Positions 17,831 through 52,261 are shown, counted from the stretch's first letter. The stretch: DNA of 64,000 bases from an uncultured Planctomycetaceae bacterium (GCA_963813715.1 CAWFAK010000009.1:96001-160000); one strand, 5' to 3'. The notes: generated by a model from the letters alone, not told the origin. Numbers and translations: made by a program.

Positions 17831-17866
17831 CTTGTTTACACGCTCATAGAAACACGACCTTGTTCC
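17831..17866 (+). promoter_or_regulatory. 36-bp motif upstream of AAA_25 gene copy 1
   Basis: CTTGTTTACACGCTCATAGAAACACGACCTTGTTCC; 26/36 ungapped identity to 52226-52261 on the minus strand. Confidence 0.6.
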
Positions 17867-17934
17867 GTTTCCAGAATCCGCAAAATGGAGATAGGAGCTT
17901 TTTTTCCGTGCTGTTCACAAGTTGAGAGTGTTGT

Positions 17935-19659
17935 ATGTCCGAGCGAAATGGGAACGGGCACCTGCCCGAAAGTGGGGCGGCGGTTGGGGATCGGGTTAAT
18001 GGCGAGACGCCGGCGGTCAGGCCCGATTTGACCGATGCCCAACGGGCGGAAGCTGTTCTGGAATGGGATCGCCGCTTCGAGGAGGCGCTGGTCGAAGTGC
18101 GGGCCAATTACGATCGGCAGGCCGAGGAAGCCAGACAGGAGAGCCAGCCAGAACCTGTTCGCGCCGGCCTCAATCGCCTGCGGGAGCTGGTCGTGCCGCC
18201 CAAGAAAGAGTTTCGGCTGTTTTCGGCCGCCCAGCTCAATTCGGGGCAGTACGAAACCCGCTACCTCGTCCGCGGCATCCTGGCGGCCGGCCAGCCCGGC
18301 GGCATCTTCGGGGCCTTCAAAACGCTCAAAACGTCGCTGGCGGCCGACCTCTTGATCTCGATCGCCAGCGGCACCCCGTTCCTGGGCCGCTTTCCCGTGC
18401 CCCAGCCGGGACGCGTCCTCTTTCTCTCCGGCGAATCGGGGCTGCCCGCGCTGCAGTCGATCGCCCGGCGAATCTGTGCCGAGCGCGGCCTGTCGCTGGA
18501 AAAACTCGACAATTTTGTCCTTTCGCCGGACTTGCCCCGGCTCGACCTGAGGTCCGACGTCGCGCGCCCTCAAAAAGACTCATCGAAACCGAACGGCCCG
18601 TCTGCGTCGTCATCGATCCGGCCTATCTCACGCTCGGCGGCGACAACGGCCGCAACCTGTTCGCGATGGGCTCGCTCTTGCGGCCGCTGGCCGAACTCTG
18701 CGAATCGACGGGCTGCACGGTGCTCGTCGTGCATCACTGCAAACGCTCGCAAAAAGCGGGCGACCCGGCCACGCTCGACGACATCGCCTGGAGCGGCTTC
18801 GCCGAGTTCTCGGCCCAGTGGCTCCTGGTCTCGCGGCGCCGCCGCATTCGATCCGGCCACCGGACACCACGAGCTGTGGCTGGGCGCGGGCAGCCGCGTC
18901 GGCAACCACGGCCTGTGGGAACTCGACGTCGACGAAGGCCGGCCGAACGAATTTTCGCTCGATGTTCGGCCCCACGGCCCGGTCGATGGTCCGCTCGATG
19001 ATGCTCTTACGGGCGAGCACCGCATCTGGAAGACGATTTTACGCGCGGTGGCCGCGCTGCAGCGGCAACTCGACGCGCAGTTCGTCGCCGCCAGCGAAGA
19101 CCGCCGCCTCCGCCGCCGAGCCGCCACGTTCGACCGGCAAAAGCAGCGCGTGCTCGAGTTCCTCTCCGCCCACCCCAACGGCTGCAACGCCACCCAAATC
19201 CGCGAAGTGCTCGGCTTCAACGGCAACCGAATGAAACGGCTCCTGGACATGCTCTGCGACGACCGGCTCGCGCGGACCGAGGAAATCTACTACGACCGGC
19301 GGAAGGAAATTCTGTACCACCGCGTGCAGGTCATGGATCTATCCGCCACCGCCATCCAATCCAACCGCGTCAGCCCAGTCGATGAAATGAAGTACGAGGT
19401 CCGGTCCGGACACTTTGTCGATCGACCGGCAGCGCGACCGGAAGACCGCCAGCCACCCACCCCGCTGAACGCCGTCGCCCCGGCAATCGCCCCGACTCCC
19501 GTTCTCCCACCGATAACCCGCGGCGAACGGCCCGTTCCCCAAGAACGCCCCAACCGCCCCGGGTGCAGGGGCGTTGCCCCTGCCCCTGCCAGGTCCGGAC
19601 ACTTTTGTGGAAGCAGGGACCGACGCAGACCGGACGTAGATTGCCGCGTAGTCCTGTAG
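17935..19659 (+). CDS. AAA_25 / RepA-like (RecA-fold) helicase with C-terminal winged HTH, copy 1 (frameshifts near 18570 and 18845)
   Basis: Walker A variant GAFKTLKTS, LFLSGE, Walker B VVIDPAY, VLVVHHCK, WSGFAEF; helical tail VLEFL..ATQIREVLGFNGNRMKRLLDML. Confidence 0.8.
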   Translation: MSERNGNGHLPESGAAVGDRVNGETPAVRPDLTDAQRAEAVLEWDRRFEEALVEVRANYDRQAEEARQESQPEPVRAGLNRLRELVVPPKKEFRLFSAAQLNSGQYETRYLVRGILAAGQPGGIFGAFKTLKTSLAADLLISIASGTPFLGRFPVPQPGRVLFLSGESGLPALQSIARRICAERGLSLEKLDNFVLSPDLPRLDLRSDVARPQKDSSKPNGPSASSSIRPISRSAATTAATCSRWARSCGRWPNSANRRAARCSSCITANARKKRATRPRSTTSPGAASPSSRPSGSWSRGAAAFDPATGHHELWLGAGSRVGNHGLWELDVDEGRPNEFSLDVRPHGPVDGPLDDALTGEHRIWKTILRAVAALQRQLDAQFVAASEDRRLRRRAATFDRQKQRVLEFLSAHPNGCNATQIREVLGFNGNRMKRLLDMLCDDRLARTEEIYYDRRKEILYHRVQVMDLSATAIQSNRVSPVDEMKYEVRSGHFVDRPAARPEDRQPPTPLNAVAPAIAPTPVLPPITRGERPVPQERPNRPGCRGVAPAPARSGHFCGSRDRRRPDVDCRVVL

Positions 19660-19910
19660 TTCCGTAGGGCCGGCTGCCAGCTTACGCAGGCGGCTCGCCA
19701 AGATCGAAACGCCCGGCGAGCGTCGGGCGTCAGCCCGATGGTGCTTTGTCTTAACGGCAGCGTGATCGCTGTCGCCAAGGTTCGCAAGATGAATTGAAGC
19801 ACCCGCCAGCTTACGCTGGCGGCTCGCCGGTTCGGGTGCAGGGGCGCTGCACCTGCCAGTCCGGACACTTTTGTGGGAATGGGGACCGACGCGGACCGGA
19901 CGTAGATTGC
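19560..19910. repeat. Two ~80-bp direct repeats with interspersed REP-like palindromes
   Basis: 19560-19644 resembles 19833-19910 (GGGTGCAGGGGCG...GTCCGGACACTTTTGTGG...GACCGGACGTAGATTGC); GCCAGCTTACGC(A/T)GGCGGCTCGCC at 19676 and 19805. Confidence 0.85.
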
Positions 19911-19936
19911 GGATCTGAATCGTTAGTGTGAGGCAT

Positions 19937-20028
19937 TGGGTGGCACTGGCGGCTTGTCCGCCAGTGTCTTCTGATGGGCAGCGCGACGGACCCAAGAACA
20001 CTGGCGGACAAGCCGCCAGTGCCACCCA
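19937..20028. repeat. REP doublet (REPIN-like inverted repeat)
   Basis: GGGTGGCACTGGCGGCTTGTCCGCCAGTGT and its exact reverse complement flank a ~30-nt spacer. Confidence 0.9.
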
Positions 20029-20098
20029 CGACCACGTCTTGGCCAAAAGAGAATCCGGGGCTTCCGCAAAGCGGAGCGCCCGGCCACTCGTCGCGTAG

Positions 20099-22028
20099 TC
20101 ATTCGGCGACTTTGTTCGCCGCGGTCGGGCGGTAGTAGTCGCCCGCCAGCCAGCGGACGACCAGGTCCGATTCGCGGGGGCTCAAGCGCGTTTGGAAGGC
20201 CGGCATGTGATTGTGCTCGCCGTAATTCTCCGGGCGGCCCGGGTCGGCGACGAATCGCTTGAGCCAGTCGACGCTGCCGTAACCGGCCAGCGCCGGGGCC
20301 GAACCGTCCTTCGCGCCTCCCTTCTTGCCGCCGGCGGCCGGCGTGAGCGAGTGGCAATCGGTGCAGGCCGACGACAGCTTGACCTTGGCCAGCGCGCCGG
20401 TCTCGAAGATTTTGCGACCCGGCTCGACCAGCGCCTTCTGCTCGGCCGTCTGAGGTAAGCGGCCCGACTGCGACGCGATGAATTCGACCAGCGCATCCAA
20501 GCTCTGTTTGTTGGCCGGATCGTTCAAGGCGGCCTTGTTCGTTTCGGACCAGTCGGCCATTTCGCCGTTGTCGAGCAGGTCTTCGCCGACTTTTTTGTCG
20601 GCGGCGTTCCGCAGCGGCTGGAACTGATGCTTGAAGTCGACGAGCACCGCGCGGACCCAGTCGCGCGAGCCGAAGTTGCCCAGGTCGGCCGCGGTTGCCG
20701 GCGCTTCGACGCGCGCGTCCCCGGCGGCGCTTTCGCCCGCAGGCGCAGCCGCGGCTCCGTTTGCTGGTGTCGGCGCAGCCGCCACGGTGACCTTACGGCC
20801 CGTGCCGTCGGTGCCGTTATAGCGGTGACAGCTCGCGCAGTTGGCCGCGAAGATTTTGGGCCCCTGCGAAAGGGGATCGTCGCGCAACAGCGTCACCGCG
20901 CCGGCGACGGGGATCATGTCCGGGACGGCGGGCCAGCTCGACGGCCCGTTCGCCCGATCGATCGGCCTCGTGGACGGCCAGCTGGAAGTCGGCGTTGTGT
21001 CGATCTTCGTAGGCGGCCAGCCCGGTCAGACCGACGACGCCCGCCATCAGCGCGAACAAAAAGCAAACGTTGAACGCGTGCCCGGCCCGCCAGCGTCCAA
21101 TCAGCGGCATCAGGACAAAAATGATCAGGATGGCCGTCGGCACGTAGATCGCGCCAAACGCCAACCCATAGTGCTCGACCGATTGAAATTTCAGGAAGCG
21201 GAACAGGAACAAGAAGTACCACTCGGGCCGAGCGGCCGAGTACGGCTCGGAGGGATCGGCCGGCGCGCTCAGCTCGGCCCCTTTGAAGACGACGCACAAG
21301 ATGACGACTGCCAGGACGCCCAGGCAGGCGACCGCGTCGCGGAGCACCTGGTCGGGCCAAAAGGTCGTCTCGGGTCGATCTTTCCGACGCACCGTGAGTC
21401 CGTGTCGCCGAAACATGTAGACATGCAGCACCAAGAACAGGACGAGCGCCGCAGGCAGGAAGCCGGCGTGCATCGCGAAGAAGCGGGTCAGCGTGTGATG
21501 GCCGTAGCGAGAGCCGCCTTGCACGAGCTGCTGCAAGAGCGGCCCGACGACCGGCGCGGACCCCATGATCTCCGTCGAAACCTGCGTGGCGTAATAGCCT
21601 TTTTGGTCCCAGGGGAGCAGATAGCCGGTGAGCGACAAGCCGAAGACGATCTGCATCAGGATCAGCCCGAGCCAGAAGTTGATCTCGCGCGGCGCACGGT
21701 ACGCCCCGTCGACGATCACCTGAATCAGGTGCAGGGCCATCAGCACGACCATCGCCTGGGCCGAGTAATGATGGATGCCCCGCACGAGCCAGCCGTAGGA
21801 CATCACGTCCTGGATGAAGTAGACGCTTTCCCAGGCGGTCTGGGCACTGGGGCTGTAGGCCGTCCAGAGGAACAGGCCGGTGATCACCTGCACGGTAAAC
21901 GTGAAGACCAGCGTGCTGCCCCACACGTAACGCCAGCGCGCTCCGCCGGGAATCGGCTCGAGCAGGACCTCGCGCATCAGGTGGCGATAGCCGGTGCGGC
22001 TGTCGAACCAATCACTCAGGCTCGTCAT
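20099..22028 (-). CDS. Cytochrome b (bc complex) fused to a dihaem cytochrome c domain (frameshift near 20920)
   Basis: RGIHH, TGYLLPWDQ, LTRFFAMH and RPEWYF (PEWY) motifs; C-terminal CASCH and CTDCH with distal HMP. Confidence 0.88.
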
Positions 22029-22040
22029 AGGTTGCCGTTC

Positions 22041-22690
22041 TCAGGCCGAGACCACGATCTTGTCGGGAGTGCCCGCTTTGAAAACCTGGTAGCGGACCCA
22101 GACCTCGCTGTTGTTCTTGAGCTTCACTTCGAGCGAGTCGAGGCCGCGCGGCGGAATTTCGTTCTTGCGTTGCCCGTCGAGATCGAAGCCGCTCATGTGG
22201 CAGGGACACAAATAATCGTTCTGCGACGGGGCGGTAATCGACGGCGCAGCCCAGGTGCGGACAGCGGACGTTGAACGCCGTCACCGTGCCGTCCGGCAGC
22301 TTGCGGAGAAACACGCGGCCGACCGGCTGGTTGGCGAACTTGTTCCAGGCGTCGACCGTGTCGTCATAGACGGTGAAAATCTGCGGCCGGCCGTCGGCGG
22401 GAATGGCCGCCAGCGGACGTCACCGGCAGAAAGCCGTCGGCATCGCGTCGACCGTCGCCGCCGCCCGACGAGCCCCGCTTTCGCAGGAGCGGATCGAGAA
22501 AGAAGGTCACGCCCGCGGCGGCCGGCACCACCAACAGCACTCCGCTGGTCAGCACGGCCAAGAGCTTTGTCAAAAAGTTGCGGCGCGGGCCGCCGGCTGG
22601 AGGCGCTTCGCCGAGCGAGCGCGAGGCGTCCGCGGGAGTCGATCCGGATTTTCGCGCGGCGGCCGATTTATCGGCAGAGTCCGAGGGCAT
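22041..22690 (-). CDS. Rieske 2Fe-2S subunit of the bc complex (frameshifted)
   Basis: Tat-like RRNFL plus TM; CPHLGC box; CPCH box in an adjacent frame; PPRGLD. Confidence 0.88.
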
Positions 22691-22875
22691 GATCAGTCGT
22701 CCGAGTGTGGGAGTCGCTCAATCGCAGTCATGAGTCCAAGAATGTCGGCGGGCAACAGGCGGTGGCAGGTTTGTTGCAGTGTCAGTTTTATTAAAGGCAG
22801 TGGCAGTTTATTGAATCTGGGCGCTGGGTCGTCAAGGAGGGAGCGAAGCGGCGTGGGGCCGGATCGCGGGGGCCG

Positions 22876-23886
22876 TCATGCGGGGGCGGGCGGTTCCGTC
22901 GGAGCGGCGAGGGCGTCGCGAGTGGCGGTCAGCACGCGCTTGAGCGCGTCCGTCAGGTTGCCGTTCAACGTTGCGCCGGAGGCCTGCTTGTGGCCGCCGC
23001 CGCCGAATTGCTCGGCGAGCATGGCGACGTCGACGCCGGCTCGGCTGCGGAAACTGAATTTGACCGTCTTGTTCATCTGCTCGACCGCGATGAACGCACA
23101 CTGGGTGCCGCCGATTTTCAGGCACTCGTTGACGAGGTCCTCGGTATCGACGGGGCGGGCGCCGCAGCGGTCGAAGTCGGCCAGTTCCACCCAGGTGTAG
23201 GCCAGCTTCCCGTCGCTCTCGAGCGTCACCCGGCTGAGCACGCAGCCGGCCAGCCGAATGCGGCCGACCGAAAACTGCTCGTAAAGTTGCCGGTAGAGCA
23301 AGTCGGGCCGCGCACCGAGGTCAATGAGCCGTGCGGCCACGCGGTGCGTCGACTCGCGAACCGACGAAAAACGGAACCAGCCGGTGTCGGTGGCGACCGC
23401 GCAGAACAACGGCGTTGCGACTTCGGGAGGAATGGCCAGATCGAGCGCGTCGGCCATTTCCAGAATCAGCACGCCCGTCGCCTCGGCCTGCGTGTCCTTG
23501 AATTCGAGCGCCCCCAGATCGTCGCTGCTGGCGTGATGGTCGATCACCACCCGGCGGGCCGTGCCGCGACGCATCATCTGGCCGACGTCCTGCAGCTGGC
23601 TCCAGGAACTGGTGTCGACGACGATGTGAACGTCGGTCTCCAGCAGGGCCTCGGGCTTGATGTCTTCGCCGATCTTCAGCACCTTGTGCTCGGGATCGAG
23701 GAACGACAGCGTCGCCGGGATTGCCGACGGATTGACGATGCGGACCTCTTTGCCCAGCGTCCGCAGGATCGCGGCCAGCCCCAGCTCGGAACCGATGGCG
23801 TCGGCGTCGGGCCGCACGTGGCTGGACAAGATAAACCGCTGGTTCGACATCAACACGTCGCGCAGCGGTTCCCAGGGAATCACCAT
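22876..23886 (-). CDS. nrnA: DHH/DHHA1 bifunctional oligoribonuclease / pAp phosphatase
   Basis: HVRPDADAIGS, VVD, IDHH, TDTGWF, SFRS and GGGHKQASG motifs. Confidence 0.9.
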   Translation of the reverse strand: MVIPWEPLRDVLMSNQRFILSSHVRPDADAIGSELGLAAILRTLGKEVRIVNPSAIPATLSFLDPEHKVLKIGEDIKPEALLETDVHIVVDTSSWSQLQDVGQMMRRGTARRVVIDHHASSDDLGALEFKDTQAEATGVLILEMADALDLAIPPEVATPLFCAVATDTGWFRFSSVRESTHRVAARLIDLGARPDLLYRQLYEQFSVGRIRLAGCVLSRVTLESDGKLAYTWVELADFDRCGARPVDTEDLVNECLKIGGTQCAFIAVEQMNKTVKFSFRSRAGVDVAMLAEQFGGGGHKQASGATLNGNLTDALKRVLTATRDALAAPTEPPAPA

Positions 23887-23975
23887 GGCCGCATTGTAAA
23901 AGGTCGCTGCCGATCTCGCGACTGGCCCCGCAACGATTGCGCCGGACTTTCTTGCGCCGGGAACCATGCAAGGTC

Positions 23976-24063
23976 GGGTGGCACTGGCGGCTCGTCCGCC
24001 AGTGTCTTGAGTGGGCCGCTCAGCGGACAAGAAACACTGGCGGACAAGCCGCCAGTGCCACCC
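23976..24063. repeat. REP doublet, second copy
   Basis: Same arms as 19938-20027 (one mismatch) with a different spacer. Confidence 0.9.
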
Positions 24064-24087
24064 CTGACTCATCGTTTTGGGGGAGGA

Positions 24088-25814
24088 CTATCGCGGCTCG
24101 GGGCCGAGGTTGCCGGCAAAATGGCTGGGCAGCGTGGACGGTTCGACGGGCGGATTGAGCGAGTTTCGTGCGCCGAGCGGCAAACTTTGGGCGGCCAGGC
24201 CGAGCGCGTGGGCTTGGTTGCGCAGGTGTTCGATTTCGTGCAGCTCGCGCTCCACATCCACGTTCGACTCTTCCAAGCAGCCCTGCCGCACGCGGCCCGA
24301 CAGCGCGTCGGAGCCGGCGCCATTGGCCTGAAACTGGCGGCGAATCGTGAACAGGTTTTCGCCCGTCGGCGCCAAGTCGGCCAGCGCGGGCACCCGCACG
24401 ATTTCGATTCGTTGCGGCGAGTCGTGCACGGAAACGGGGCCGGCCTTGACCATGCTGTCCACCGAGATCTCGACGTCGCTGTCGGGTCCCTTGATCTTCA
24501 CCGACGGCAGCACGAAGAGTTCGCGCTGCGCGGTGCGCCACACGAGTTCCCCGCCGACGCTCACCGCGAAACGCCCGCACCGCGTGTAGTACAACTGGTG
24601 GGTCTGGCGGTCTTCAAGCTGGAAGAATCCTTCGCCGTCGATCGCCAGATCGAGCGGACGATCGGTTTTGCGAATCTTGCCTTGGCCAGCGTCGACACCC
24701 ACCGGCCCGAGCCGCACGCCCACGCCGATGCTGCCGCGCGACGAGCTGGCGGCCGCGCTCTCGAGCGCGACGATCGCACGTTTGTAACCGTCGGTGCCGG
24801 CGTTGGCGACGTTATTCAGCAAGACTTGCTGCGCCTGAGCGATGGCTTCGAGGCTGGCGCCGATCGTCCGCGCGGCGTCCCGCTCGCCGTCGGGCAGTAA
24901 GCCGGGTGAGTCACTGGGCGGCAGGAGCGGCTCGCTGGCGGTCGGCCCGGGAGTAGCCTGCGGCCACAGCGGCAGACTCGAGGGGGGCTGGCCCAGTGAC
25001 GACGGGCCAAACGGCGACTGGCCGATTGGCGACTGGCCTAACGGGGAAGGCCCCAGCAGCGGCCGGGTCTCGACGGTCGACGGCGGCGTGCGGCCCAGCT
25101 CCTCGCGGAGCCGCAACAGTTCGCGCACGTCGTGGGGCGACAGAATCCTTGAGCTGTTCGTGCCAGACTTCGCGCTCCTCGGCCGTTGAGTTGGGCAGCG
25201 CTCGATCAATGACGCGGCGACCCGGCGAAATCGGGTGTGGGGAAATTCACGTTCGGCGAATTGACATTCGGGGAATTTAGGCCCGGTGCGATCGGCCCCC
25301 CATCGCCGAATCTGGGAGTCACTGGGGCCGAGGCTGGTGGTTCGACGGGGAAATCCGGTCCGTCCGGCAAGAGCGGCAGTGCGTCGGTCCGTAGTGGCAT
25401 CGGCATCGGCTGAGGAATCGCCGAGGGCCGCGTCGATTCGCTGGCGTCGGCCGTCCGCGGCGGGTGTGGCAGAGCGGCCGGCTCGCGACCCGAGACAGCG
25501 GGCAGGATTCGGTTGGTTCCGACCTCGCTCGACAACAGCGGGCGCTCGCAGGCACCGCTCGCGCAGCCGGTGGTCATGACGTCCGAGATGCGAGTGACCG
25601 TGCGCGGTCCGCTTGCGGGCGGATTGTCTGGCATCTTGCAGTCGGGGTACAGCTGCGGGGGAAGGAAAGACGCGGGCGTCGCCGCGCCCGTCGCGCGGCT
25701 CGCAGCCGGCGGATGGTGGTGTCCTTGACGAGCGATCCAATGTCCGGCAACGAGCAGTGCCGAGACGCAGACCAAAGACAAAACACCGGTCGCCGCGCGG
25801 TTCACAAAGCGCAT
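24088..25814 (-). CDS. FlgG/FlgF-like rod-domain protein with N-terminal hydrophobic anchor and Pro-rich linker (frameshift near 25200)
   Basis: NNVANAGTDGYK, TDRPLDLAIDGEGFF, YTRCGRF and QGCLEESNVD motifs; upstream frame starts MRFVNRAATGVLSLVCVSALLVAG after a GGAGG RBS. Confidence 0.7.
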
Positions 25815-26433
25815 GGTTGCCCTCCCTGGCAAAAGCGGGCCGCACGGTAGTCGAATCCGGTAAAAGCGGCAAGATGGATTGGCTCTCAATCGCTTCCGGG
25901 GAAGCGACTTAAGAGCTCGTCGCGCCCACCTGCCGAATCCGTCGGCCGAGCAACTGATGAAGGCTCTCTCAGAATGCAGCTTCCGGAAGCTCGCACCTCG
26001 AAGCACCTACCGATGTCCGGGCCTGTGGACGCGGTACAGCCTGCGCTGTCCGGCATCGAGGTGAGTCACAACGTCGCATGGATGCCCCCCGAGGACGCAT
26101 CGCGAATCGCGGGACGAAATTTTACCGGCTGCAGGGCCGCGTTCGTCTCGACCGATTGCCGGTCGTTCACTATAAAGCGTCCCCCTCAAAGCGGCCGTAA
26201 GCCGCTGAGCGGGTAAAAATTACGCAGTCGTGCGCGGGGCCGCAGGATTCCGACCGGCGCAAACGGGAAACATCGGCGCCTGCGGAATTTCTTGGCAGTT
26301 TCTCATTTGCACGGCAGATCCCTCGCGTGACCGGCCGGACCCAGAGATGCCGGAAACTGCGAGCGGTCTCGCGAAATCCCGCGCCGGATCGCGAACGTGA
26401 GACTTTAATCCTCTTGAAAGGAGTCGTGACGTG

Positions 26434-28207: not shown

Positions 28208-28230
28208 TCCGCGTTATGATTTGATTCTCG

Positions 28231-37485: not shown

Positions 37486-37571
37486 CCGAGGGCGCGCTCG
37501 TCCACGGCCGATCGAGACCGGGATTTCGGACGAAAGAAACGGGGCGAGAGGAGGGACACAGGATTGATCCG

Positions 37572-42653: not shown

Positions 42654-42691
42654 GGAGTCTTACCGAGCGCTGCCCTTCCTCACCCGCTCAG

Positions 42692-42730
42692 CCCCTCGCC
42701 CTAAATTCCTCTCCCCCTCGCGGGAGAGGG
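42692..42730. repeat. REP-like CCTCTCCC/GGGAGAGG hairpin
   Basis: CCCCTCGCCC..CCTCTCCC-CCTCGC-GGGAGAGGG. Confidence 0.55.
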
Positions 42731-42892
42731 AGAAAGATGAGGGACTAGTAGCGAGATCCTCCGTTCGACCGAGCGTCCGTCTGACGCACGGTGGTCCGGC
42801 TCCGCTCGGCGGACTAGAATACCGGTAACGCGGAAATATGGCCGATTTATCGAGAAAAACTGCGGAGTGACGCGTGGATCGCGAACGCACCC

Positions 42893-44006: not shown

Positions 44007-44025
44007 CGACTCGAGTCCCTGCCCT

Positions 44026-44412
44026 ATGAAAACCAATGAGTCCAACGCGATGCCCGCTCCCACCGCAGTCGGCGACATTATTCCCCGCACGGTCAGCCGC
44101 GAGCTGAAATTTGCCAACGGCACGGCGATCGGCGTCAGCAATCGCTGGAACAAGGGGCAATACTGCTCGATCCTGACTGAGGCTGGCATCGTCGGCTGCG
44201 GCATTTACGATCTGGAGACGGCGGCCGAATTCAGCCTGGCGATTGCCATCTGCAAAGGGACGCCGGCCAAGCCACTCGTCGAGCCCGAGGATTTGTTCGA
44301 GTCGAAAATCGTCGGTGCCACTCCGCAGGCCGAAGCGATGGGCATCCGCAAAGGGATCACCGGCAAGGAAGCGGTGGAACTGATGCTGCGGGCCAAACCG
44401 GCGAAATCGTGA
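44026..44412 (+). CDS. YunC (DUF1805) family protein
   Basis: GIVGCGIYD and KIVGATPQAEAMGIRKGITGKEA patterns. Confidence 0.75.
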   Translation: MKTNESNAMPAPTAVGDIIPRTVSRELKFANGTAIGVSNRWNKGQYCSILTEAGIVGCGIYDLETAAEFSLAIAICKGTPAKPLVEPEDLFESKIVGATPQAEAMGIRKGITGKEAVELMLRAKPAKS

Positions 44413-44450
44413 CCAGCGCTTTCCACGAGTTCTAAGCCAGAGAGACCGCC

Positions 44451-44912
44451 ATGAGCCCGACCGACGCCGCCACCCGCTCGACGCAGCATGCCGCGACGTC
44501 ATCCGCGAATCCGCTGCGGGTGAAGACCCTCGACCACGTGACGCTGGTCGTAAAGGACCTCGAACGCAGTCACGCCTTTTATGCGGGCGTGCTCGGCATG
44601 CAGCCAGTCGAGCGGCCCAAGTTCTCGTTTGCCGGCAGCTGGTTCCAGGCGGGAAAGACGCAGATTCATCTGATTTTGGAGCATCCCGAATCGGGCCCTT
44701 CCGGCGTGCCGATCCCGCAGCAACTGTTGGGAATGAGCCGCACGCATCACTTCGCCTTCGAAGTCGACGATGCCCATGCAGCGACCGAGGTATTGCGGTC
44801 GAAGGGCATTCCGATCGTCAGCGGACCGAAGAACCGTCCCGACGGCATGATCCAGGTCTTCGCGACCGACCCGGACGGCCACGTCGTCGAACTCTGTTCC
44901 TGGCCTCGATAG
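44451..44912 (+). CDS. VOC / glyoxalase family protein
   Basis: LDHVTLVVKDL, HFAFEV and DPDGHVVEL motifs. Confidence 0.9.
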   Translation: MSPTDAATRSTQHAATSSANPLRVKTLDHVTLVVKDLERSHAFYAGVLGMQPVERPKFSFAGSWFQAGKTQIHLILEHPESGPSGVPIPQQLLGMSRTHHFAFEVDDAHAATEVLRSKGIPIVSGPKNRPDGMIQVFATDPDGHVVELCSWPR

Positions 44913-45035
44913 GGACAGGCCGCCCCGCTGAAGACGCCGCCATCACGAACCGGCTATCGACGACGCTGCGCGTCCCCGTCGACGGGCGCGGAGCAGCGAC
45001 CGTGCCGCGATAGCTCGTTCGGTCTCGAAGTCGGC

Positions 45036-45608
45036 TTACTCCGACTTCCCTTTCTCCTCGGTCGATTTGTCCTCGGCCGCGTCGTCGGTCTTTTCCTTGC
45101 CGGCTTTCTTGGCGGTGCTCCGCTTGGTCGTGGTGCCGCCGCCCGCGGCCGGCGCGAACTCGACGCGAGCCGCAAACAGCTGCTTGAGCCGCGTCGGGTT
45201 GTAGAGACGAACGACGCGATTCTTGTAGGTCACGCGGCCCTGGGCGTCGTGTGCCAGGTGCTCGGCGACTTCGGGCACGGCCTGGCCGGCGTACAGCCCG
45301 GCGAAGGTTTCGGGATCGACTCCCTGTCCCGATTCCAGATCGGCGACGGCATCGACACCGCCAACGCTCGTGGCAAATGCGTTGAGCCCAAGGATGGCGG
45401 GAACGTAGCGTTTCTCGTCCTGCAGCATCTGCATGGCTTCGGACATCACGCGGTCCGCGTCGCGCAGCTTGTCACGCAGGGCGCCTTGCACGGATTCGGT
45501 GGTCGGGTCGGCACTCAGCGGCGTGGGGCCTGCGAGATGCAGCGTGCCCAGCACATAGCCGACGCTCAAGAGACACAGACAGAACACGGTCCGAGGGATC
45601 CAGCTCAT
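45036..45608 (-). CDS. Exported hypothetical protein
   Basis: GGAG RBS; signal/TM segment; GVDPETFAGLYAG core; charged tail. Confidence 0.7.
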   Translation of the reverse strand: MSWIPRTVFCLCLLSVGYVLGTLHLAGPTPLSADPTTESVQGALRDKLRDADRVMSEAMQMLQDEKRYVPAILGLNAFATSVGGVDAVADLESGQGVDPETFAGLYAGQAVPEVAEHLAHDAQGRVTYKNRVVRLYNPTRLKQLFAARVEFAPAAGGGTTTKRSTAKKAGKEKTDDAAEDKSTEEKGKSE

Positions 45609-45891
45609 GCTCGCTCCGTTGGCTGAAGAATAGCCCGCCATGGTTGGCGTAACAGCCCGTGGGAACAGGCCGAGCCCGCGTCCAATCTCTATCGTCGTGA
45701 CCGACCCGAGGCTTTGCAAGGGAGAAAATCAGCCGCCACCGCGGCCCACAACAAGTTCTCGGCGGGCGCTGTGCAAACTCGCCGAGGGGCTCTGGACACC
45801 GGGTCAAACGCGACGCGGAACGGGGAACGATGCCGCAATTCACGGGCGAGGCGGGCAAAGTGTGACACGCGCGCCAGAGGCGCGGCGGGCT

Positions 45892-46213
45892 CTAAACCTC
45901 GACGCGGGCGAGCAAGCTGATCAGCTCGTTCAGCGCGTGATCGATGCGGACGGTGTCCTGCAGTCGGCAGGCGTGTTGCAGTTCGGCGCCGGCCGCGCTG
46001 ATTTGCGGGAATCCGTAGCCGCCACCCGCGCCCTTGAGCTGGTGCGCCTGCCGTCCCAATTCCTCGACACAGCGTGCGCGATGCAGCTCGCTCAGCAGGC
46101 GCATCCGGTCCGGCACCGCGCTTCACAAAGAGGTCGAGCAAGTCGTGGAAGTCGACGTCGTCGGCGAATTCCGAGCGGAGCGGCGTTTGGGCGGTCGTGG
46201 TCGATACGGACAT
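45892..46213 (-). CDS. Stand-alone Hpt domain protein (frameshift near 46120)
   Basis: PLRSEFADD..DLLDLFV followed by AHQLKGAGGGYGF. Confidence 0.8.
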
Positions 46214-46487
46214 GACAAGGGTTCCTGCAATCCGCAACTGGATCGGTGGCACCGAATGTTTAGCACGTCCGGAGAGACGACGATTCGCTTCCGCCCCTGC
46301 CAGAAACCGCCGAGACCAAGCGAGGTCCGGTTTTGCCGAACGCACGGATTCTGACGTTCGTCCTGTTTGCAAATCGCCCGAACCACAGCGTCATGTGTGG
46401 GAGCCGGCCATCGGGATAGAATGAGTTGCGCGGCGATTCTGGAGTTCGGGCCGCGTAACCGACGCCCATCCGAGGCTCTGCCTGCCG

Positions 46488-47021
46488 ATGCCTTTCGGAA
46501 CTTACCAGCGCATCTTTCGCTCTCCGCTGGAGGCGCGGGTCCAGATGAATGGGCAGTCTCCGCTCGGCTGCCTGTTGCTGATCGTCGTTCCCGCGCTGCT
46601 CGTCGTGTCCACGTACCTCGCGTGGTGGGAGCTGCGATTTTTCGTGCAGGGTCGCACGACCGAGGCCACCGTCGACCGCGTCGAGGAAATCCGACTGCGG
46701 AGCGGCCTGTTCGGCGGGTCATACCGCGACGTCCACTACTCGTTTCCTGACGGCGATTCGGACCGTTTGCGCAGCGAACGCGACGAGCTGCCTGCCTCGT
46801 GGCCGCGCCCCGGTCATGTGGTGCGCGTGGAATTCGTTCCCGGATTGCCAGGCGGCTCGCGCGTCGCCGGCCATCGGCACATCGGGTTCACGATCTTTTT
46901 TGTGGTGACTGTGATTGGCTCGGCCGTGTATGTTGGCCTGTTGCTGCGGGAAGCGCGGCGGGTGGTGAACGAGCAAGCGAGGTTCGAATCGGAACGCCGC
47001 CGCCGCGGGAATGCCGTTTGA
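46488..47021 (+). CDS. Two-TM membrane protein (DUF3592-like)
   Basis: TM, then GRTTEATV..VHYSF..VRVEFVP, then a second TM. Confidence 0.55.
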   Translation: MPFGTYQRIFRSPLEARVQMNGQSPLGCLLLIVVPALLVVSTYLAWWELRFFVQGRTTEATVDRVEEIRLRSGLFGGSYRDVHYSFPDGDSDRLRSERDELPASWPRPGHVVRVEFVPGLPGGSRVAGHRHIGFTIFFVVTVIGSAVYVGLLLREARRVVNEQARFESERRRRGNAV

Positions 47022-47042
47022 TTCACCGGCCGAATGCCGAGG

Positions 47043-49550
47043 CTACTTCCCGACGAACTCGCCGTGCTCGACGCTCCAATCGTTGCCGAAGAAGCCGGCC
47101 TGTTTGACGCCGGGCACTCCTTTGAGCAACGCTTCCGCCCCGAACACCACGCAATCGGGATAGCCGATGCCGGAGACGAAGAAGGGCAAACGGTCAGTCA
47201 GCCGCATCCCTTTGACGCCAGTCCCTGAGACGACGCCGACGGCGGCCACGTCACTGTCGGGCCGCGGACGCACGAAGAGACAGCCTAGGTTGTCGGCCTT
47301 GGTCTCCTTCCCGCCGACCGAGATCGAACCCGACCGCACCTGCACGGGACTCTGCCCCAAGAGCGCCGTCCACGCGCCGTTCGTGTTGGCGTTGCCGTAC
47401 AGGATCACGTTGTGATCGCCGTCCTTGGTCGCGTCGAACTCGGCGTCGGTCACGATCGGGATGAACCCGTTGCCGCGATACCAGAAACTTTCGGCGTCGA
47501 AGCGGGCTTTCTGCAGCGCCCACGCGTTTTCTTCCGGAGAACCTTTCGTGCCGACGACGAACCGCATGCCGTTGCGAAACGCATCGCGAAACGGGCCGCT
47601 GCGTGCCGGCGTCTTCATAGCGGCCGCCGGCTTTGCACCGACGTGCCATTTGCCGCCCACCCGGTCCAGCCACACGACGGCCCCGCTGCCGGGCCAGGGA
47701 ACGTCCTTCAATGCCTGGCCGTCGAGCTCGATCGAAAGCGGTGCCGCCCGGCTTGAGGTGATGCACGTCGAGTCCCAGGCAGGCCACGTTGTCGGTCGTG
47801 CCGGCGAAACTTCCGCTTCTCGCGATCCTGCGACAGATGAATGGCGCGTCGGTTTGTACGCCTTTTGTTGCTCTTCGATGATCGCCCAGTGGGAGTCGGC
47901 CGAAACGCCCGGGCTGATCGTGACGAAATCGACCCGCTTGACGTCCGCGTTCTCGGGCCGCGAACGCTCGGAGAAGAACTCGAACATCTGCGGCCAATCG
48001 ACGCACAAGTTGCCCCACCAGTGGCCGGCCCCCGAGCGCTCGTGGTAGGCCCAGTCGCCGTGAAAGCCGGCGAGCACTTTCCGCATCTCGCGCGCCTGGT
48101 CGACGGGGACGTTGTCGTCCTGGTCGCCGTGCAGCACGTAAACGCCGAGCGAACCGAGATTCTTGACGAGGGCCAGCGTATCGCCCGCCGATGCGGACCG
48201 CTGAAACAGGTCGGCCATCGGGTCCGGGTGTTCGGTCCGGGGCACGCCGGCGTATGACATCATGCTGATCCAACCGGCGCTCGGGCCGATGGCGGCGAAC
48301 TTGTCCGGATACGTCACGCCCAAGTGCCATGTGCCGTGCCCGCCCATCGAATGGCCCGTGAGCCAGATGCGATGCGGGTCAACCTTGAGCGTGTGGCAGG
48401 CCTCGTCGAGCACTTCGAGTGCGTCGAGCCGGCCCCAGTCTTCCCAGTCGAAGCCATACGGCCGGCGATTTGTCGCCGCGACGACGTGCGTCCACGGCTT
48501 GGGTTTGAAGCAATCGGCCTGGCCCAACCCTTCGACACCCGCACCGTGCAGCGTCAGAGTCAGACCGGGCGTCTGCGAACTGGGCGTGGCCGGGACCAGC
48601 GCGTAATACTGCACACTGCCGTCGATCTTGCTGCGAAAGGTGACTTTGTGCGTCTGCTCCGGCTTCAACAAGCGGAGCCGAATCACCGTTTGATCGAGGC
48701 TGCGGCCAGCGTCGGGCTTCGGTCGCTGCAGCGCGAGTGTGACGGACACCTGACCGGGCTTCGTCGGCGGCATCCCGGCAATGCGAATCGGCACCTTGGA
48801 GACACTGAACGGAGGCAGTTCGGGCAGCTCGGTCCGCGTGGGGCTGCTGCCCGGCAGCGTCGACACGATAGTCACGCCCTTTTGCCACGCGGGCGTCGCG
48901 TTGATCACGGGGACGGCCGCCCAGCCGTCATATTTTCGCCCCGTCAGCAGGTCGGGAGTGGTGATGTCGCCTGGATTGAAAAAAAGCTCGCCGGGCGAAG
49001 CCGTCAGTTTGGCCTTGAGGTCCCCGCGCGCCACCGTGAATAAGAACAGGTTCGCCCCCTTCTTGAGTTGCACCGGCACGTGGACGTAGCCGTACGAGTA
49101 GGGATCGCCGGCCCGCGGCTCGCCGTTGACCCAAACCATGCCATGCCCGCTCGCCTCCAGGATCATCACACGGTCTGCCGGCGAGTTGAGCGAGAAGAAC
49201 GCATAACCCCCGTTGAGCGCGCGGTCCTGATAGCTGCCGTCTTTTCCCGGAGCCAGTTTTTGCCAGGCCCGCGTCCGGCCATCCGGTCGAGGCACCGTGT
49301 CTCCGGCTTTCGGCGGCGTCCAAGTGCCGTCGGCGACCTGCGCCGCCACGGGGTCGATAGGAAAGGCGACCCGCATTCCCCGCGCGGGGGGTGCCAGAAT
49401 CAATGCCTCGCCGAACGTCGTGTCCTTGGGAGCGTCGGCGGCGCGGGCGGGGACAACCGTCAACAGAATGGTCAGGGTCAGTAGAGCGGCGAGGGGCGGG
49501 GCGAATGCCAACTTGAGGCACAGCTTGCGACACGAACCTGGCGCGGTCAT
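47043..49550 (-). CDS. Exported alpha/beta-hydrolase (S9 peptidase/esterase-like)
   Basis: LHGAG, GHSMGG nucleophile elbow, HGDQDDNV, GHWW; signal peptide. Confidence 0.8.
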   Translation of the reverse strand: MTAPGSCRKLCLKLAFAPPLAALLTLTILLTVVPARAADAPKDTTFGEALILAPPARGMRVAFPIDPVAAQVADGTWTPPKAGDTVPRPDGRTRAWQKLAPGKDGSYQDRALNGGYAFFSLNSPADRVMILEASGHGMVWVNGEPRAGDPYSYGYVHVPVQLKKGANLFLFTVARGDLKAKLTASPGELFFNPGDITTPDLLTGRKYDGWAAVPVINATPAWQKGVTIVSTLPGSSPTRTELPELPPFSVSKVPIRIAGMPPTKPGQVSVTLALQRPKPDAGRSLDQTVIRLRLLKPEQTHKVTFRSKIDGSVQYYALVPATPSSQTPGLTLTLHGAGVEGLGQADCFKPKPWTHVVAATNRRPYGFDWEDWGRLDALEVLDEACHTLKVDPHRIWLTGHSMGGHGTWHLGVTYPDKFAAIGPSAGWISMMSYAGVPRTEHPDPMADLFQRSASAGDTLALVKNLGSLGVYVLHGDQDDNVPVDQAREMRKVLAGFHGDWAYHERSGAGHWWGNLCVDWPQMFEFFSERSRPENADVKRVDFVTISPGVSADSHWAIIEEQQKAYKPTRHSSVAGSREAEVSPARPTTWPAWDSTCITSSRAAPLSIELDGQALKDVPWPGSGAVVWLDRVGGKWHVGAKPAAAMKTPARSGPFRDAFRNGMRFVVGTKGSPEENAWALQKARFDAESFWYRGNGFIPIVTDAEFDATKDGDHNVILYGNANTNGAWTALLGQSPVQVRSGSISVGGKETKADNLGCLFVRPRPDSDVAAVGVVSGTGVKGMRLTDRLPFFVSGIGYPDCVVFGAEALLKGVPGVKQAGFFGNDWSVEHGEFVGK

Positions 49551-49729
49551 CGAGCGGGCTTTCTCTAGAAGATGTCCGAGGGTGTGGAATGAGTTGTACC
49601 GCGACGATCCGGCTTCTGTCATGCGCGCCCAGCCGATTTTGCGTAGCGACCCGCATAGAATGGCCGAAAGGGCCGCCCCAACGTCACAATGCTCGCGCCT
49701 GGACGAACGTCACCGCGAGGGAGAAACGA

Positions 49730-49915
49730 ATGCAGCAGGAAGGCACCTACATTTGCGACGCCTGCGGAGAGGAGATCGTCGTGCCGATCGACGTCTCGGC
49801 CGGCGAGAGCCAGGAATACGTGGAGGACTGCCCCGTCTGCTGCCGCCCCAACGTCGTGCACGTCGAGATCGAAGATGACGGCGGCGTGCGCGTGTGGGCT
49901 CAGAAGGAAGCGTAA
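49730..49915 (+). CDS. CPXCG-motif cysteine-rich small protein
   Basis: CDACGE...QEYVEDCPVCCRP; GGGAG RBS. Confidence 0.85.
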   Translation: MQQEGTYICDACGEEIVVPIDVSAGESQEYVEDCPVCCRPNVVHVEIEDDGGVRVWAQKEA

Positions 49916-50118
49916 GCGGCCGACGACGACCCGATGATCCCGGTCGCCGCATTCGGGGCTCTCGCTTCCGGGACAAGTATCAGCCAAACCGAAACGGTTT
50001 TAGAGAGAAGCAACTACTCGTTCAGAATCTACGTGACCACCGACAGACCCGCCCCACTGCAGGGTTCGCTGTCGAGCTGGCTCTCGAGGCTGGCGGTTGT
50101 CGGCGTTCTGAGCGCCCG

Positions 50119-50472
50119 TCAGTCCAGCATCACAAACAAGTAGGACTGGCCCGTATCTTTCTCGGGATCGAATCCTTGCTCTTGTGCGATGCGGCCGCAC
50201 CAGGCACAAACGCGTTGCCGAGCCTCCGGATCGTCAGGCAGTTTGAGAACGAGTTTGCCGGTGTTCTGCCCTTCCGGGTATTCGTCGATTTCCACGGCGA
50301 AAACCTCAACGGCACCGGCATCATAGGCTTCCTTCGCCAGGGCGATGGACTCCTCATTGGTGGCCAATTCGCCGAGAGATCGAAAATCCTCGCCGGAGCC
50401 CCCTTTCAGCCAACCGAGCACCTCTTTCGTATTGGGATCGCGGAGGAATTTCTTACAGAATTCGTCGGACAT
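50119..50472 (-). CDS. Hypothetical protein
   Basis: GAGG RBS; globular acidic 117-aa ORF downstream of AAA_25 copy 2. Confidence 0.75.
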   Translation of the reverse strand: MSDEFCKKFLRDPNTKEVLGWLKGGSGEDFRSLGELATNEESIALAKEAYDAGAVEVFAVEIDEYPEGQNTGKLVLKLPDDPEARQRVCAWCGRIAQEQGFDPEKDTGQSYLFVMLD

Positions 50473-50663
50473 CGATGTGCCTCACCGTTCCGATTACGAG
50501 AAAAAACGATTCGGTGTCTCCATCGTCGCAACTGGGGCCCGTCAACTGCAAGGCGAAATCTTCGGTGAAAAGCGACGTTCCGCAGCGTCGTTACTGCTGA
50601 GCCGAAACGTCTCAGCCGTGGCACCCGAATAACCGGACGAGGCATGACACCGGGGCGCGCGGT

Positions 50664-50749
50664 GGGACCACTTTTGGCGCCCCCCTTATATTAAATGTGA
50701 TGGTACCGTCACGGCGGGACCACTTTTTGTTGTCCCGGCGGGTCCACTT
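50664..50749. repeat. Short iteron-like repeats around an AT-rich patch at the 3' end of AAA_25 copy 2
   Basis: GGGACCACTTTT at 50664 and 50716, GGGTCCACTT at 50740, CCCCCCTTATATTAAAT between the first two. Confidence 0.6.
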
Positions 50750-52205
50750 GTTCCACCGCGCGCGTCGCCTCGGATGAATCCGCCGGCTTCGTGGGCAGGC
50801 GATAGGCTACTTCCGTCCGGTCGTGCCGCTCGATCTTGACGACGACCAGTCGCTCTTCGTCCACGAGTGATTCGAGGACGTCGATCAATCGCTTTGCATT
50901 GAGCCCCAGCGCAAGGCGCAAGCCCCGGGCGGTTTCGCCTGCCGGGCGGAGGGCCAAGGCCTCAAGCACGCGGTGGCGATTGCGCTCGAACGCGACGGCG
51001 ACCTGGCGAGCGCGGCGATCTTCACAGTCGGCAAAGGTCCGCTCTTCGGATTGAGCCTCGGCGATCGAGACTGGGCGAATGGCGGTCTTCCACTTCCGCT
51101 TTTCCCGTCCGCCGGCCACTCCTTCACTCACATCCAGGGCCCACAAGCCGTGGTGACCGCTGCGTCCCCCGGCCGAGAGCCACAGCTCGTGCCGGCCGAG
51201 TTCCGGGTCGAACCGCCGGCGGCGCGAGAGGGTGAGCCATTGGGCGGAGAACTCGGCGAAGCCGGCCCAGGCGATGTCCTCGAGCGAAGCCGGGCTCCGA
51301 CGGGCTTGCTGCGAGCGCTTGCAGTGATGGACGACCAGAACGGTGCAGCCGGTTGTCTGGCAGATTTCGGCCAGCGGACGCAAGAGCGCGCCCATGGCGA
51401 ACAGGTTGTGGGTGGCTTCGCCGCCGACCGCCAGGTAGGCCGGATCGATGGCGACGCAAATCGGCTGTCGCTCGCGAATGATCCGCCGCAACGCCCGCAC
51501 GTCGGCCGCCCGATCGAACTGGGGAAGTTTTGGCGAGAGCTCGAAATTGTCGACCGCCTCCAGCGACAGCCCCCGCGCCCGGCAGATGCGGCGGACGATC
51601 GATTGCAGCGCGGCCAGGCCCGATTCGCCCGAAAGAAACAGCGTGGGGCCGGGCTGGGCGACGGGGAACTGGCCCAAAAAGGGCGTCCCGCTCGCCAGCG
51701 AAATCAACAGGTCGGCCGTGACCGAGGTCTTGAGCGTCTTGAACGCCCCGAAAATGCCGCCCGGCTGGCCCGCCGCCAGCACGCCGTCGATCAGATAGCG
51801 GGTCTCGAACTGCCCCGAGTTGAGCCGTGCGGGCGTGAAGAAAGGAAAACGGTCTTCGTCGGATGCCTCGGACAGGTCGATGTCGTCGAGAATCTCGTCG
51901 AGTTCATGTCCGGGTGTCGGGTGGTTGCCGGCCAACCGACCCAGCCGATTGATGATCTCTCGGACATGGCAGTTGGGATCCGGATCGGGCCGTGCCCCCG
52001 GATCTGGCGGATCACCTCCTCCCAGGCCGCGTCGCGGATCCGGCAGAAGTCCGCCAGATCGATGACGTCGGCGATGACCGGGTCGAGCCCGATCGATTGC
52101 AAGTAATGCGAAAAAGCCTGGCGCCGCCCCTTGTCGACCCAGTCGATCGACCGCGCCACGGACGACGCGGGCGATGTGCTGCGATAAATTATGGCCATTT
52201 AGCAA
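50709..52205 (-). CDS. AAA_25 / RepA-like helicase with C-terminal winged HTH, copy 2
   Basis: GAFKTLKTS, LFLSGE, AIDPAY, VLVVHHCK, WAGFAEF; tail VLEAL..ARGLRLALGLNAKRLIDVLESL; N-terminus may carry compensating frameshifts. Confidence 0.85.
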   Translation of the reverse strand: MLNGHNLSQHIARVVRGAVDRLGRQGAAPGFFALLAIDRARPGHRRRHRSGGLLPDPRRGLGGGDPPDPGARPDPDPNCHVREIINRLGRLAGNHPTPGHELDEILDDIDLSEASDEDRFPFFTPARLNSGQFETRYLIDGVLAAGQPGGIFGAFKTLKTSVTADLLISLASGTPFLGQFPVAQPGPTLFLSGESGLAALQSIVRRICRARGLSLEAVDNFELSPKLPQFDRAADVRALRRIIRERQPICVAIDPAYLAVGGEATHNLFAMGALLRPLAEICQTTGCTVLVVHHCKRSQQARRSPASLEDIAWAGFAEFSAQWLTLSRRRRFDPELGRHELWLSAGGRSGHHGLWALDVSEGVAGGREKRKWKTAIRPVSIAEAQSEERTFADCEDRRARQVAVAFERNRHRVLEALALRPAGETARGLRLALGLNAKRLIDVLESLVDEERLVVVKIERHDRTEVAYRLPTKPADSSEATRAVEQVDPPGQQKVVPP

Positions 52206-52225
52206 TCATCGCGCGCCCACACAAT

Positions 52226-52261
52226 GGATCAAGATCGAGTTTCTACGCCCAAAGAAACAAG
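52226..52261 (-). promoter_or_regulatory. 36-bp motif upstream of AAA_25 gene copy 2
   Basis: CTTGTTTCTTTGGGCGTAGAAACTCGATCTTGATCC on the minus strand; contains a GTTTC-N10-GAAAC dyad. Confidence 0.6.

Follow-up and report, generated by a model that had tools for sequence, protein, structure and literature searches.

A dispersed family of cassettes with a helicase-type ATPase gene, a winged helix and short repeat arrays in a planctomycete genome

A 64,000-nucleotide stretch of the genome of an uncultured Planctomycetaceae bacterium (GCA_963813715.1, CAWFAK010000009.1:96001-160000; here the window, G000:C9:96001-160000, with coordinates that lack a contig prefix counted from its start) carries two genes for AAA_25-type ATPases, at 17935-19659 on the plus strand (copy 1, or c9a) and at 50709-52205 on the minus strand (copy 2, or c9b). 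Both belong to a family of cassettes, units of about 2-2.4 kb that combine a 5' control region, a gene for an AAA_25 ATPase with a C-terminal winged helix, and a 3' array of words containing GGAC. A six-frame search of the genome (G000; 7.49 Mb in 18 contigs, 63% G+C) found 11 loci, where an earlier note on the window had described two units, and the two copies in the window are neither the only ones nor both at syntenic sites. The cassettes are discrete units that have been copied to unrelated intergenic sites with no visible integrase or transposase, a reading that follows from the 11 loci with sharp shared ends, from the empty site of copy 1, from the absence in congeners of the island around another copy (c5b), and from bursts in two other genomes. 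To this extent the suggestion of the same note that a multicopy unit of motif, helicase and repeats spreads is borne out. We give a probability of about 0.5 to the reading that the family is a selfish, duplicative, primase-less cassette whose single gene encodes a replication helicase.

Shared ends, empty sites and bursts

All-against-all BLAST of the 11 loci with 6 kb flanks defined three groups: group A, comprising copy 1 and c5b (93.4% identity over 1843 bp); group B, comprising c5a and c6 (90.3% over 1964 bp); and group C, comprising c10, c13 and c9c (91-93% over 2.1-2.3 kb). Copy 2, c14, c7 and c3 remained ungrouped. Beyond the shared 2-2.4 kb the flanks of the loci are unrelated, save for short dispersed repeats and one larger duplication, an additional 3.7 kb that c13 and c9c have in common at 96.7% identity. 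In group B all four copies, two in G000 and two in its relative G002, begin at one base about 35 bp before a TATAAT box and have the same end point. Downstream of c9c, an insertion of about 1.5 kb relative to c13 (G000:C9 ~9578-10783, outside the window) encodes a 402-aa protein that, judged by eye, looks like a DDE (rve) transposase of the IS481/IS3 type of insertion sequence (IS).

Presence/absence polymorphism at conserved sites was found for copy 1 and for c5b. Copy 1 lies between a gene of the major facilitator superfamily (MFS; ending at 17282) and a cytochrome c gene, and the spacer between these genes, 2764 bp in G000, measures 83 bp in G002, 87 bp in G003, 71 bp in G009 and 73 bp in G005, the site being empty in all four congeners examined; in G002 the flanks of copy 1 are 92-94% identical. 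The G000 insertion consists of the cassette (17804-20086, plus strand), matched to the intact cassette c5b at G000:C5:1483577-1485594 with a second stretch of 263 bp at 92.4% identity in the BLAST of the loci, and of 513 bp unique in the genome (17291-17803), which lie outside the stretch shared with c5b. The c5b cassette itself sits in a 4.5 kb island, together with about 950 bp of other sequence and an IS110 element, and G003 and G009 lack this island, having 74 and 73 bp there. A hairpin repeat at the right junction of copy 1 (CCGGGGCTTCCGCAAAGCGGAGCGCCCGGCCAC, 20055-20086), with 26 copies genome-wide at two mismatches or fewer, is also found at the right end of c5b and, with a different loop, in the empty G002 site, G000 having the donor-type loop; the sequence of this junction fits recombination within a short shared repeat. 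At the left junction of copy 1 no homology was found.

Two features of these insertions stand apart from the cassette. The unique 513 bp contain an open reading frame (ORF) for a hydrophobic 62-aa protein (17501-17689) with no Pfam match and no second copy in the genome; this DNA came along with, or predated, the insertion of copy 1. Just downstream of c5b lies the gene for the IS110-family transposase (DEDD_Tnp_IS110 and Transposase_20; L025:6371-7450, equivalent to G000:C5 ~1485870-1486949), and beside it L025:6063-6607 is 96% identical to a contig end of G009, the two genomes being otherwise about 80% alike.

The family extends to other genomes. Seven of 11 congeners have matches (2-15 each), and none were found in G001 (65% complete), G004 (74%), G005 (96%) and G008 (86%). 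In the one-contig genome G003, six copies agree at 91-96% over 1.7-2.1 kb, and another two are 96% identical to each other; the six share their start base, just ahead of the class I upstream motif described below, four of their frames are open, and their flanks lie on separate contigs in G006, G007, G009 and G010. G020, from a different family, encodes proteins 30-38% identical to c5b at 13 loci, all with open frames (509-688 aa), and eight of these loci form a set with 84-90% identity over 1.6-2.3 kb. AAA_25, often with MarR_2, is carried by more than 335 close homologs, which where named are called 'AAA family ATPase [Planctomycetaceae bacterium]'; the wider protein family comprises 1,814 cluster representatives at E <= 1e-30. 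No description of such a family was found in titles and abstract openings of the literature on planctomycete multicopy helicases of the AAA_25/RepA type, which is not proof of absence.

Copies 1 and 2 both score above the curated Pfam cut-off of 27 bits for AAA_25 (PF13481), the type to which the earlier note had assigned the two ORFs, and both have damaged frames. In copy 1 the open frame of 574 aa matches AAA_25 at residues 93-187 only (48.2 bits, profile positions 5-99), and the displaced middle of the domain is found in an ORF in another frame (18063-19001, plus strand; 45.2 bits, profile positions 54-192). Compared with its 93%-identical intact paralog c5b, copy 1 has two extra nucleotides near 18561-18575 and one at 18844, and as a result about 94 codons of the ATPase core are out of frame, the ORF having stayed open because stop codons are rare at the G+C content of this genome. 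The identity of 81 in 100 residues reported between the copies from LNSGQ onward is exact; past these residues the next 95 or so agree at about 1 position in 20 before identity recovers, an interruption explained by the frameshifted core codons of copy 1. A further 190 bp (19643-19832), built from dispersed repeats, are extra in copy 1 relative to c5b. To judge from its reading frames copy 1 is a pseudogene and not a working gene, a defunct member of the c5b lineage that is specific to G000.

Copy 2 is older and also present in the nearest relative, G002, where its ortholog is 93% identical in nucleotide sequence. Its open frame of 498 aa has a full AAA_25 match (87.2 bits, profile positions 7-194), and its last ~38 residues come from a dispersed repeat. 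An ORF in another frame (51791-52198, minus strand) matches the N-termini of homologs with its first 71 residues, and homologs such as P0094 and P0070 span both pieces, the small ORF corresponding to their residues 1-73 and the main frame continuing from residue 70, which points to a frameshift near codon 70 that has left the first ~70 codons in another frame. Two stretches beside copy 2 are missing from the orthologous G002 site, 49930-50641 (206 bp there) and 52349-52931 (118 bp there), and the flanks of copy 2 are non-adjacent in G003, G005 and G009. The first of these stretches contains an orphan ORF of 117 aa (50119-50472, minus strand), and the second an orphan ORF of 89 aa (52533-52799, minus strand), which recurs in the same gene context in the metagenome locus L064; neither ORF has a Pfam match.

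The protein and its relatives

An AlphaFold model of the intact c5b protein, made from 65 sequences (mean predicted local distance difference test score, pLDDT, 67.6), begins with a helical N-terminus, continues with a RecA-like core and includes, at about residues 373-462 (pLDDT 88-94), a confidently modelled winged helix with the order helix-helix-helix-strand-strand. PF12802 is precomputed on many of the 120 homologs listed, and a C-terminal peptide with the consensus KVYDxGTGQFVDR is conserved. The winged helix-turn-helix (wHTH) tails predicted earlier for both copies are supported by these homologs and the c5b model; in copy 1 the region (~19147-19302, plus strand) matches MarR_2 at 18.3 bits, below the Pfam cut-off of 27, and in copy 2 the C-terminal region is wHTH-like with no Pfam wHTH match. 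A search of the Protein Data Bank with the sequence gave ADAR1 Z-alpha as the best match (E 0.008), and a Z-DNA-binding winged helix was rejected: the contact residues, which we take to be Asn and Tyr in Z-alpha, align to Lys/Arg and Asp.

The nearest structures to the c5b core in Foldseek are T7 gp4 helicase (E 1.6e-5), KaiC, Twinkle and RecA/RAD51 paralogs, and the PHROGs matches are phage primase/helicase families. NCBIfam and PADLOC gave no match, and a reading as a known defence system, for which these searches offered no support, was set aside. No primase family was found in c5b, copy 1 or copy 2 with Pfam, PHROGs or NCBIfam. Among 30 longer relatives, 19 carry Prim-Pol, PriCT, NrS-1 HBD, Zn-ribbon primase or DnaB_N domains ahead of AAA_25, with a core identity of 36-49%, and the family is therefore a primase-less branch of the replication helicases of mobile elements.

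Such relatives would also be expected if the loci were leftover replication modules of larger plasmids, prophages or satellites, separately acquired and with the remainder deleted, and several loci do lie at synteny breaks or in variable islands. This origin seems to us very improbable, given that the insertions are just 2.76 and 4.5 kb long and hold no other mobile-element gene than an independent IS110, that copies within a genome are mutual closest relatives with shared ends, and that no neighbour family recurs. In a census of 165 ORFs around 37 loci (11 from G000, 13 from G003 and 13 from metagenomes) no family was present at more than four of the 37, the recurring ones reflecting orthologous contexts, and no flanking ORF recurs among the 11 G000 loci. 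The 34 neighbour ORFs of six G000 loci encode, by Pfam, housekeeping proteins that include homoserine dehydrogenase, MFS, cytochrome b and c, MetK and D-Ala-D-Ala carboxypeptidase, one IS110 transposase, and no integrase or primase (0 of 34), in keeping with the housekeeping setting and the missing partners that the earlier note had described. The neighbours of the two copies in the window are likewise housekeeping genes (MFS, cytochrome c/b, peptidase).

Control regions and dispersed repeats

The cassettes have two types of upstream region. Class I, CCAACTTGTTTyy-N-TAGAAAC, contains an inverted GTTTC/GAAAC pair at ~10 bp spacing and precedes copy 1, c5b, c3, copy 2 and the six G003 copies. 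Within the window it accounts for the shared upstream motif already noticed at the two copies, as CTTGTTTACACGCTCATAGAAAC with inverted GTTT..AAAC arms at 17831-17853 (plus strand), ~25 bp inside the 5' boundary of the copy 1 cassette, and as CTTGTTTCTTTGGGCGTAGAAAC (GTTTC-N10-GAAAC) at 52239-52261 (minus strand). Class II, at c5a, c6, c7, c10, c13 and c9c, consists of a TATAAT box, two hairpins whose loops resemble CTTAAC, and a terminator-like stem that carries a T-run; the core of this leader occurs six times in the genome, each time upstream of a family gene. Pairing holds in 99.7% of cells across 16 distinct class II leaders from G000, G002 and metagenomes, and the small hairpins have one two-sided change each (GC/AU in 6 sequences, CG/UA in 7) among sequences that are close kin; each paired change may be a single event, and a DNA palindrome would explain these changes as well as an RNA stem.

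Class I motifs of the GTTTC-N10-GAAAC type also occur at six 'solo' sites in G000 (C2:21515, C5:156966, C12:307907, C16:311585, C17:774666 and C17:218510), followed after 130-400 bp by long arrays of GGAC words with no helicase gene between, and the two C17 sites have ~200 bp in common after the motif. These sites could be gene-less derivatives.

The 3' repeats of the cassettes vary with the group. Arrays of GGTCCGGACACTTT follow group A; GGGACGGGACAC arrays follow group B, group C and c3 and are found in G003, where the copy number differs among the six copies; GGGACG-type words follow groups B and C, and in the six G003 copies there are 2-5 instances of CGGGACGGGACAy. Direct-repeat arrays thus lie beside the gene as they do in an iteron-type replicon, with a putative role in binding, and the conserved C-terminal peptide is encoded in part by the first word of the array. 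In copy 1, where three GGTCCGGACACTTT-type repeats span 19408-19871 (plus strand) and GGACACTTT starts at 19408, 19597 and 19863, the repeat at 19408 falls within the codons for this peptide (..RSGHFVD..). Near the end of copy 2, GGGACCACTTT lies at 50664 and 50716 on the strand opposite to the gene. Both words belong to one of two dispersed repeat units in 50593-50764, namely the ~100-bp unit at 50656-50764, which carries them on the plus strand; the other unit, at 50593-50639, is a repeat of 36-46 bp with dozens of copies in G002, G003 and G009. The GGAC repeats reported at the 3' ends are therefore present where they were placed, on the opposite strand in copy 2, but these 'iterons' are members of repeat families dispersed through the genome.

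The CCGGACACTTT family has 62 copies in G000 and the GGGACGGGAC family 363, in 131 clusters. Within 1.5 kb of six of the 11 loci there are 16 hits of GGGACGGGAC against ~2 expected, all 16 on the strand of the gene and 15 of them downstream; GGAC words are enriched at the cassettes, yet most copies lie elsewhere. High copy numbers of the 14-mer GGTCCGGACACTTT are confined to G000 (57 copies), G002 (30) and G007 (45), and all three genomes have helicase genes with GGTCCGGACACTTT at the 3' side. The repeat of G020 is a different one, with AATGACGAA present four times, and a 17-mer taken from it has 61 copies in the genome, 16 of them in the 13 loci (~1.3% of the genome); in inverted orientation, and with a length of 130-190 bp, this repeat flanks five of eight copies of the main G020 sub-family.

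Three further observations concern repeats. A tandem array at G000:C17 ~898565 contains 16 GGGACGGGAC hits in units similar to TGGTTGGGACGGGA. GGGAC words also form runs, GGGACGGGACGCGGGACGGGAC for instance, that fit the pattern G3-N-G3-N-G3-N-G3 of a potential G-quadruplex. Rfam gave two sub-threshold matches to Acido-Lenti-1 on the 11 loci, L002:2999-3052 and L006:3008-3062 (34 and 29.9 bits against a threshold of 37), which fall within a dispersed repeat of ~100 bp, found upstream of c14 and also downstream of c5a.

Copy 1 also contains, at 19937-20029, a ~90-bp palindromic element (GTGGCACTGGCGG...CCGCCAGTGCCAC) that resembles repetitive extragenic palindromic (REP) sequences and has 70-125 BLAST hits in the genome. 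It is present in congeners that include the helicase-free G008, and it is probably independent of the cassette and part of a separate REP-type system. A palindrome of this type at G000:C5 ~265630 lies 142 bp upstream of a Y1_Tnp match that resembles a REP-associated tyrosine transposase (RAYT), and the two may form a separate system of the REPIN-RAYT kind (a REPIN being a hairpin formed by paired REPs). G000 has eight Y1_Tnp matches, and a link between RAYTs and the GGAC-word repeats was rejected, only one of the eight genes lying nearby.

These repeats and enzymes bear on another explanation, in which the cassettes are non-autonomous cargo between short repeats like REPs or miniature inverted-repeat transposable elements (MITEs) and are moved in trans by Y1/RAYT-like or IS110 enzymes. 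The inverted repeats around the G020 copies, which are also dispersed, the Y1_Tnp genes of G000, the IS110 element beside c5b and the REP-like palindromes that abut many cassettes all speak for it. Nevertheless we consider it unlikely, given the near-absence of Y1_Tnp genes from the neighbourhood of GGAC words and the fact that inverted repeats are missing from the flanks of the G000 and G003 cassettes, and it leaves unexplained why the same type of gene is found in two distant lineages with unrelated flanking repeats.

Turnover, mechanism and meaning

Fully intact frames in G000 are those of c5b, c5a, c6 and c7; copy 1, c10, c13, c9c, c3 and c14 are frameshifted, and copy 2 has its N-terminal shift. 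The three group C copies are broken at differing places in G000 and intact in G002, and group B has the opposite pattern, with intact frames in G000 and broken ones in G002; cassette decay is lineage-specific. In 10 of 11 close pairs, which include three G000-G002 ortholog pairs and paralog pairs within G000 and G003, the ratio of nonsynonymous to synonymous substitution rates (dN/dS) is 0.09-0.22, the exception being a near-identical G002 pair (0.61 at a dS of 0.024), and these ratios indicate that the intact copies are under purifying selection.

Selection of this kind is what one would expect of a host-domesticated paralog family, in which winged-helix/RecA-fold ATPases act on GGAC-word arrays in regulation, repair or replication restart and the number of copies changes by duplication, gene conversion and loss. 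The earlier note had named a domesticated, co-regulated family as its alternative, and part of the evidence agrees with it: besides the constraint on intact orthologs and paralogs, G002, a relative ~92-93% identical in the flanking DNA compared, keeps every locus at the orthologous site apart from copy 1 and one of the group C copies, gene conversion seems to act between copies, the conserved control regions suggest co-regulation, and the six solo class I motifs precede repeat arrays that lack the gene. We rank it below the selfish cassette, as a possibility of the second order, because G000 has six or seven broken loci out of 11 and G002 has different ones, the family is missing from four congeners, one of them 96% complete, and the nearest relatives are the primase-helicases of mobile elements. 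Nor does a host function readily account for dispersed duplicates with identical ends that include the promoter, for insertions between convergent housekeeping genes, or for independent bursts in G003 and G020.

Several observations weigh against a selfish, self-copying cassette. First, turnover is slow: c7, c3, c14, c5b, copy 2, c5a, c6 and group C have orthologs in G002, the only loci specific to G000 in this comparison are copy 1 and one group C copy, and the latter belongs to a segmental duplication of at least 6 kb. Recent movement might have been read into two group C cassettes on G002:C4 (L049:6542-8944 and L050), which are inverted, ~107 kb apart and, over exactly 2404 bp, 99.7% identical between flanks that are unrelated. 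Both sites are occupied in G000, where the counterparts are 91-93% alike and the contexts rearranged, and the near-identity of the pair is better read as gene conversion, the arrangement as a whole suggesting gene conversion and recombination between cassettes.

Second, the signs of a known mode of transfer were not found. No target-site duplication or consistent terminal inverted repeat was found at the ends of groups A, B and C in G000; no recombinase domain (DDE, HUH, Ser or Tyr) was detected, Pfam, PHROGs and NCBIfam giving AAA_25/helicase matches only; no joint of 3' to 5' ends and no coverage excess was found in Logan contigs of four soil or rhizosphere metagenome runs, a material in which depth is uninformative; none of 43 metagenome loci has a terminal overlap; and there is no close homolog among 72,556 plasmids or 50,697 phage records, the best matches being distant helicases at 29% identity at most. 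The spread of the unit is accordingly supported by the copies at new sites, but for a spread 'on its own' no catalytic recombinase, free circle or target duplication was found.

Third, the Walker A motif is non-canonical, GAFKTLKT(S) with Leu where Gly is usual in GxxxxGK[ST]. The residues L131, K132 and S134 are invariant in the 65 sequences, in a region of the model with pLDDT below 50, and because a RepA-family helicase of an Escherichia coli plasmid aligns GASGSYKS at this position, the substitution is a trait of the clade and not proof of inactivity. Fourth, 347 of the 363 GGGACGGGAC hits lie away from family genes. G000 and the six congeners that match the helicase strongly have 23-117 copies of the 13-mer CGGGACGGGACAC, and the four gene-free congeners and G011, which has one weak, divergent locus, have none; but the genomes that lack it are at the same time the most remote ones (73-76% identity or no match at all, compared with 78-92% for the others), and since this co-occurrence follows one clade it counts as approximately one event.

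Under the selfish-cassette reading, movement would proceed in three steps. The winged helix would bind the palindromes and repeats of the cassette itself; the ATPase would then load at the bound repeats as a ring helicase and start local replication, in analogy to the annotated role of its primase-helicase relatives in plasmids, phages and integrative elements; and the host would fix the extra DNA at new sites by recombination at dispersed short repeats. Binding, loading and recombination are all inferred steps. A bolder version, which we regard as doubtful, is that the family represents a new class of selfish element, whose sole protein is a helicase of the origin-binding type with no recombinase and which copies itself through replication at its own repeats, also seeding or maintaining the GGAC-word repeat families or, in G020, those of the AATGACGAA/GCGCAAG type.

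The cassettes share features with several known systems and coincide with none of those compared. With RepA/DnaB-type AAA_25 helicases and Prim-Pol/PriCT-AAA_25 primase-helicases they have in common the AAA_25 match, the RecA fold, the PHROG primase/helicase matches and the 36-49% core identity, and the combination of AAA_25 with a winged helix is also present in phage 'RepA' clusters. Unlike the primase-helicases of mobile elements, the cassette protein has no primase or DnaB_N domain and only a helical N-terminus of ~90-120 aa, and its genes, at 11-15 loci per genome, are chromosomal and solitary, with no partner genes. Modules in which an initiator gene lies next to its origin are known from iteron plasmids with their Rep proteins and from archaeal Orc1/Cdc6 genes beside origin recognition box (ORB) repeats. 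The cassettes resemble these in placing a winged helix and an NTPase beside direct-repeat arrays, in the varying number of repeats and in having several paralogs per genome; they differ in that the ATPase is of the RecA-fold, superfamily 4 (SF4)-like kind and not AAA+, and in that their repeat words recur elsewhere in the genome, at more than 100 places.

REPIN-RAYT systems are alike in that a gene is flanked by short repeats scattered in tens to hundreds and sub-families pair with repeat variants. The cassette protein, however, is a helicase-type ATPase with a winged helix and not an HUH/Y1 transposase, and whereas RAYTs are known as single-copy and vertically inherited genes, the cassette genes are multicopy and show insertion polymorphism. 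IS elements and the MITEs derived from them share discrete ends, dispersed copies, empty sites, decaying copies and gene-less mini-versions (at six sites here), but the cassettes have no DDE, HUH, serine or tyrosine recombinase domain, and neither target-site duplications nor terminal inverted repeats were found in G000.

Even on a conservative reading, automated annotation calls these genes 'AAA family ATPase' and overlooks many frameshifts. If the cassette multiplies by means of its helicase-winged-helix protein alone, it would be a case of gene mobility without a transposase or integrase, and if the doubtful extension to the repeat families were true, it would provide a helicase-based counterpart of the REPIN-RAYT or IS-MITE relationship. 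It would also provide a phylum in which genetic tools are scarce with a naturally occurring minimal 'initiator plus origin' module, and its protein would be a candidate partner of the short repeats that abound between the genes of these planctomycetes.

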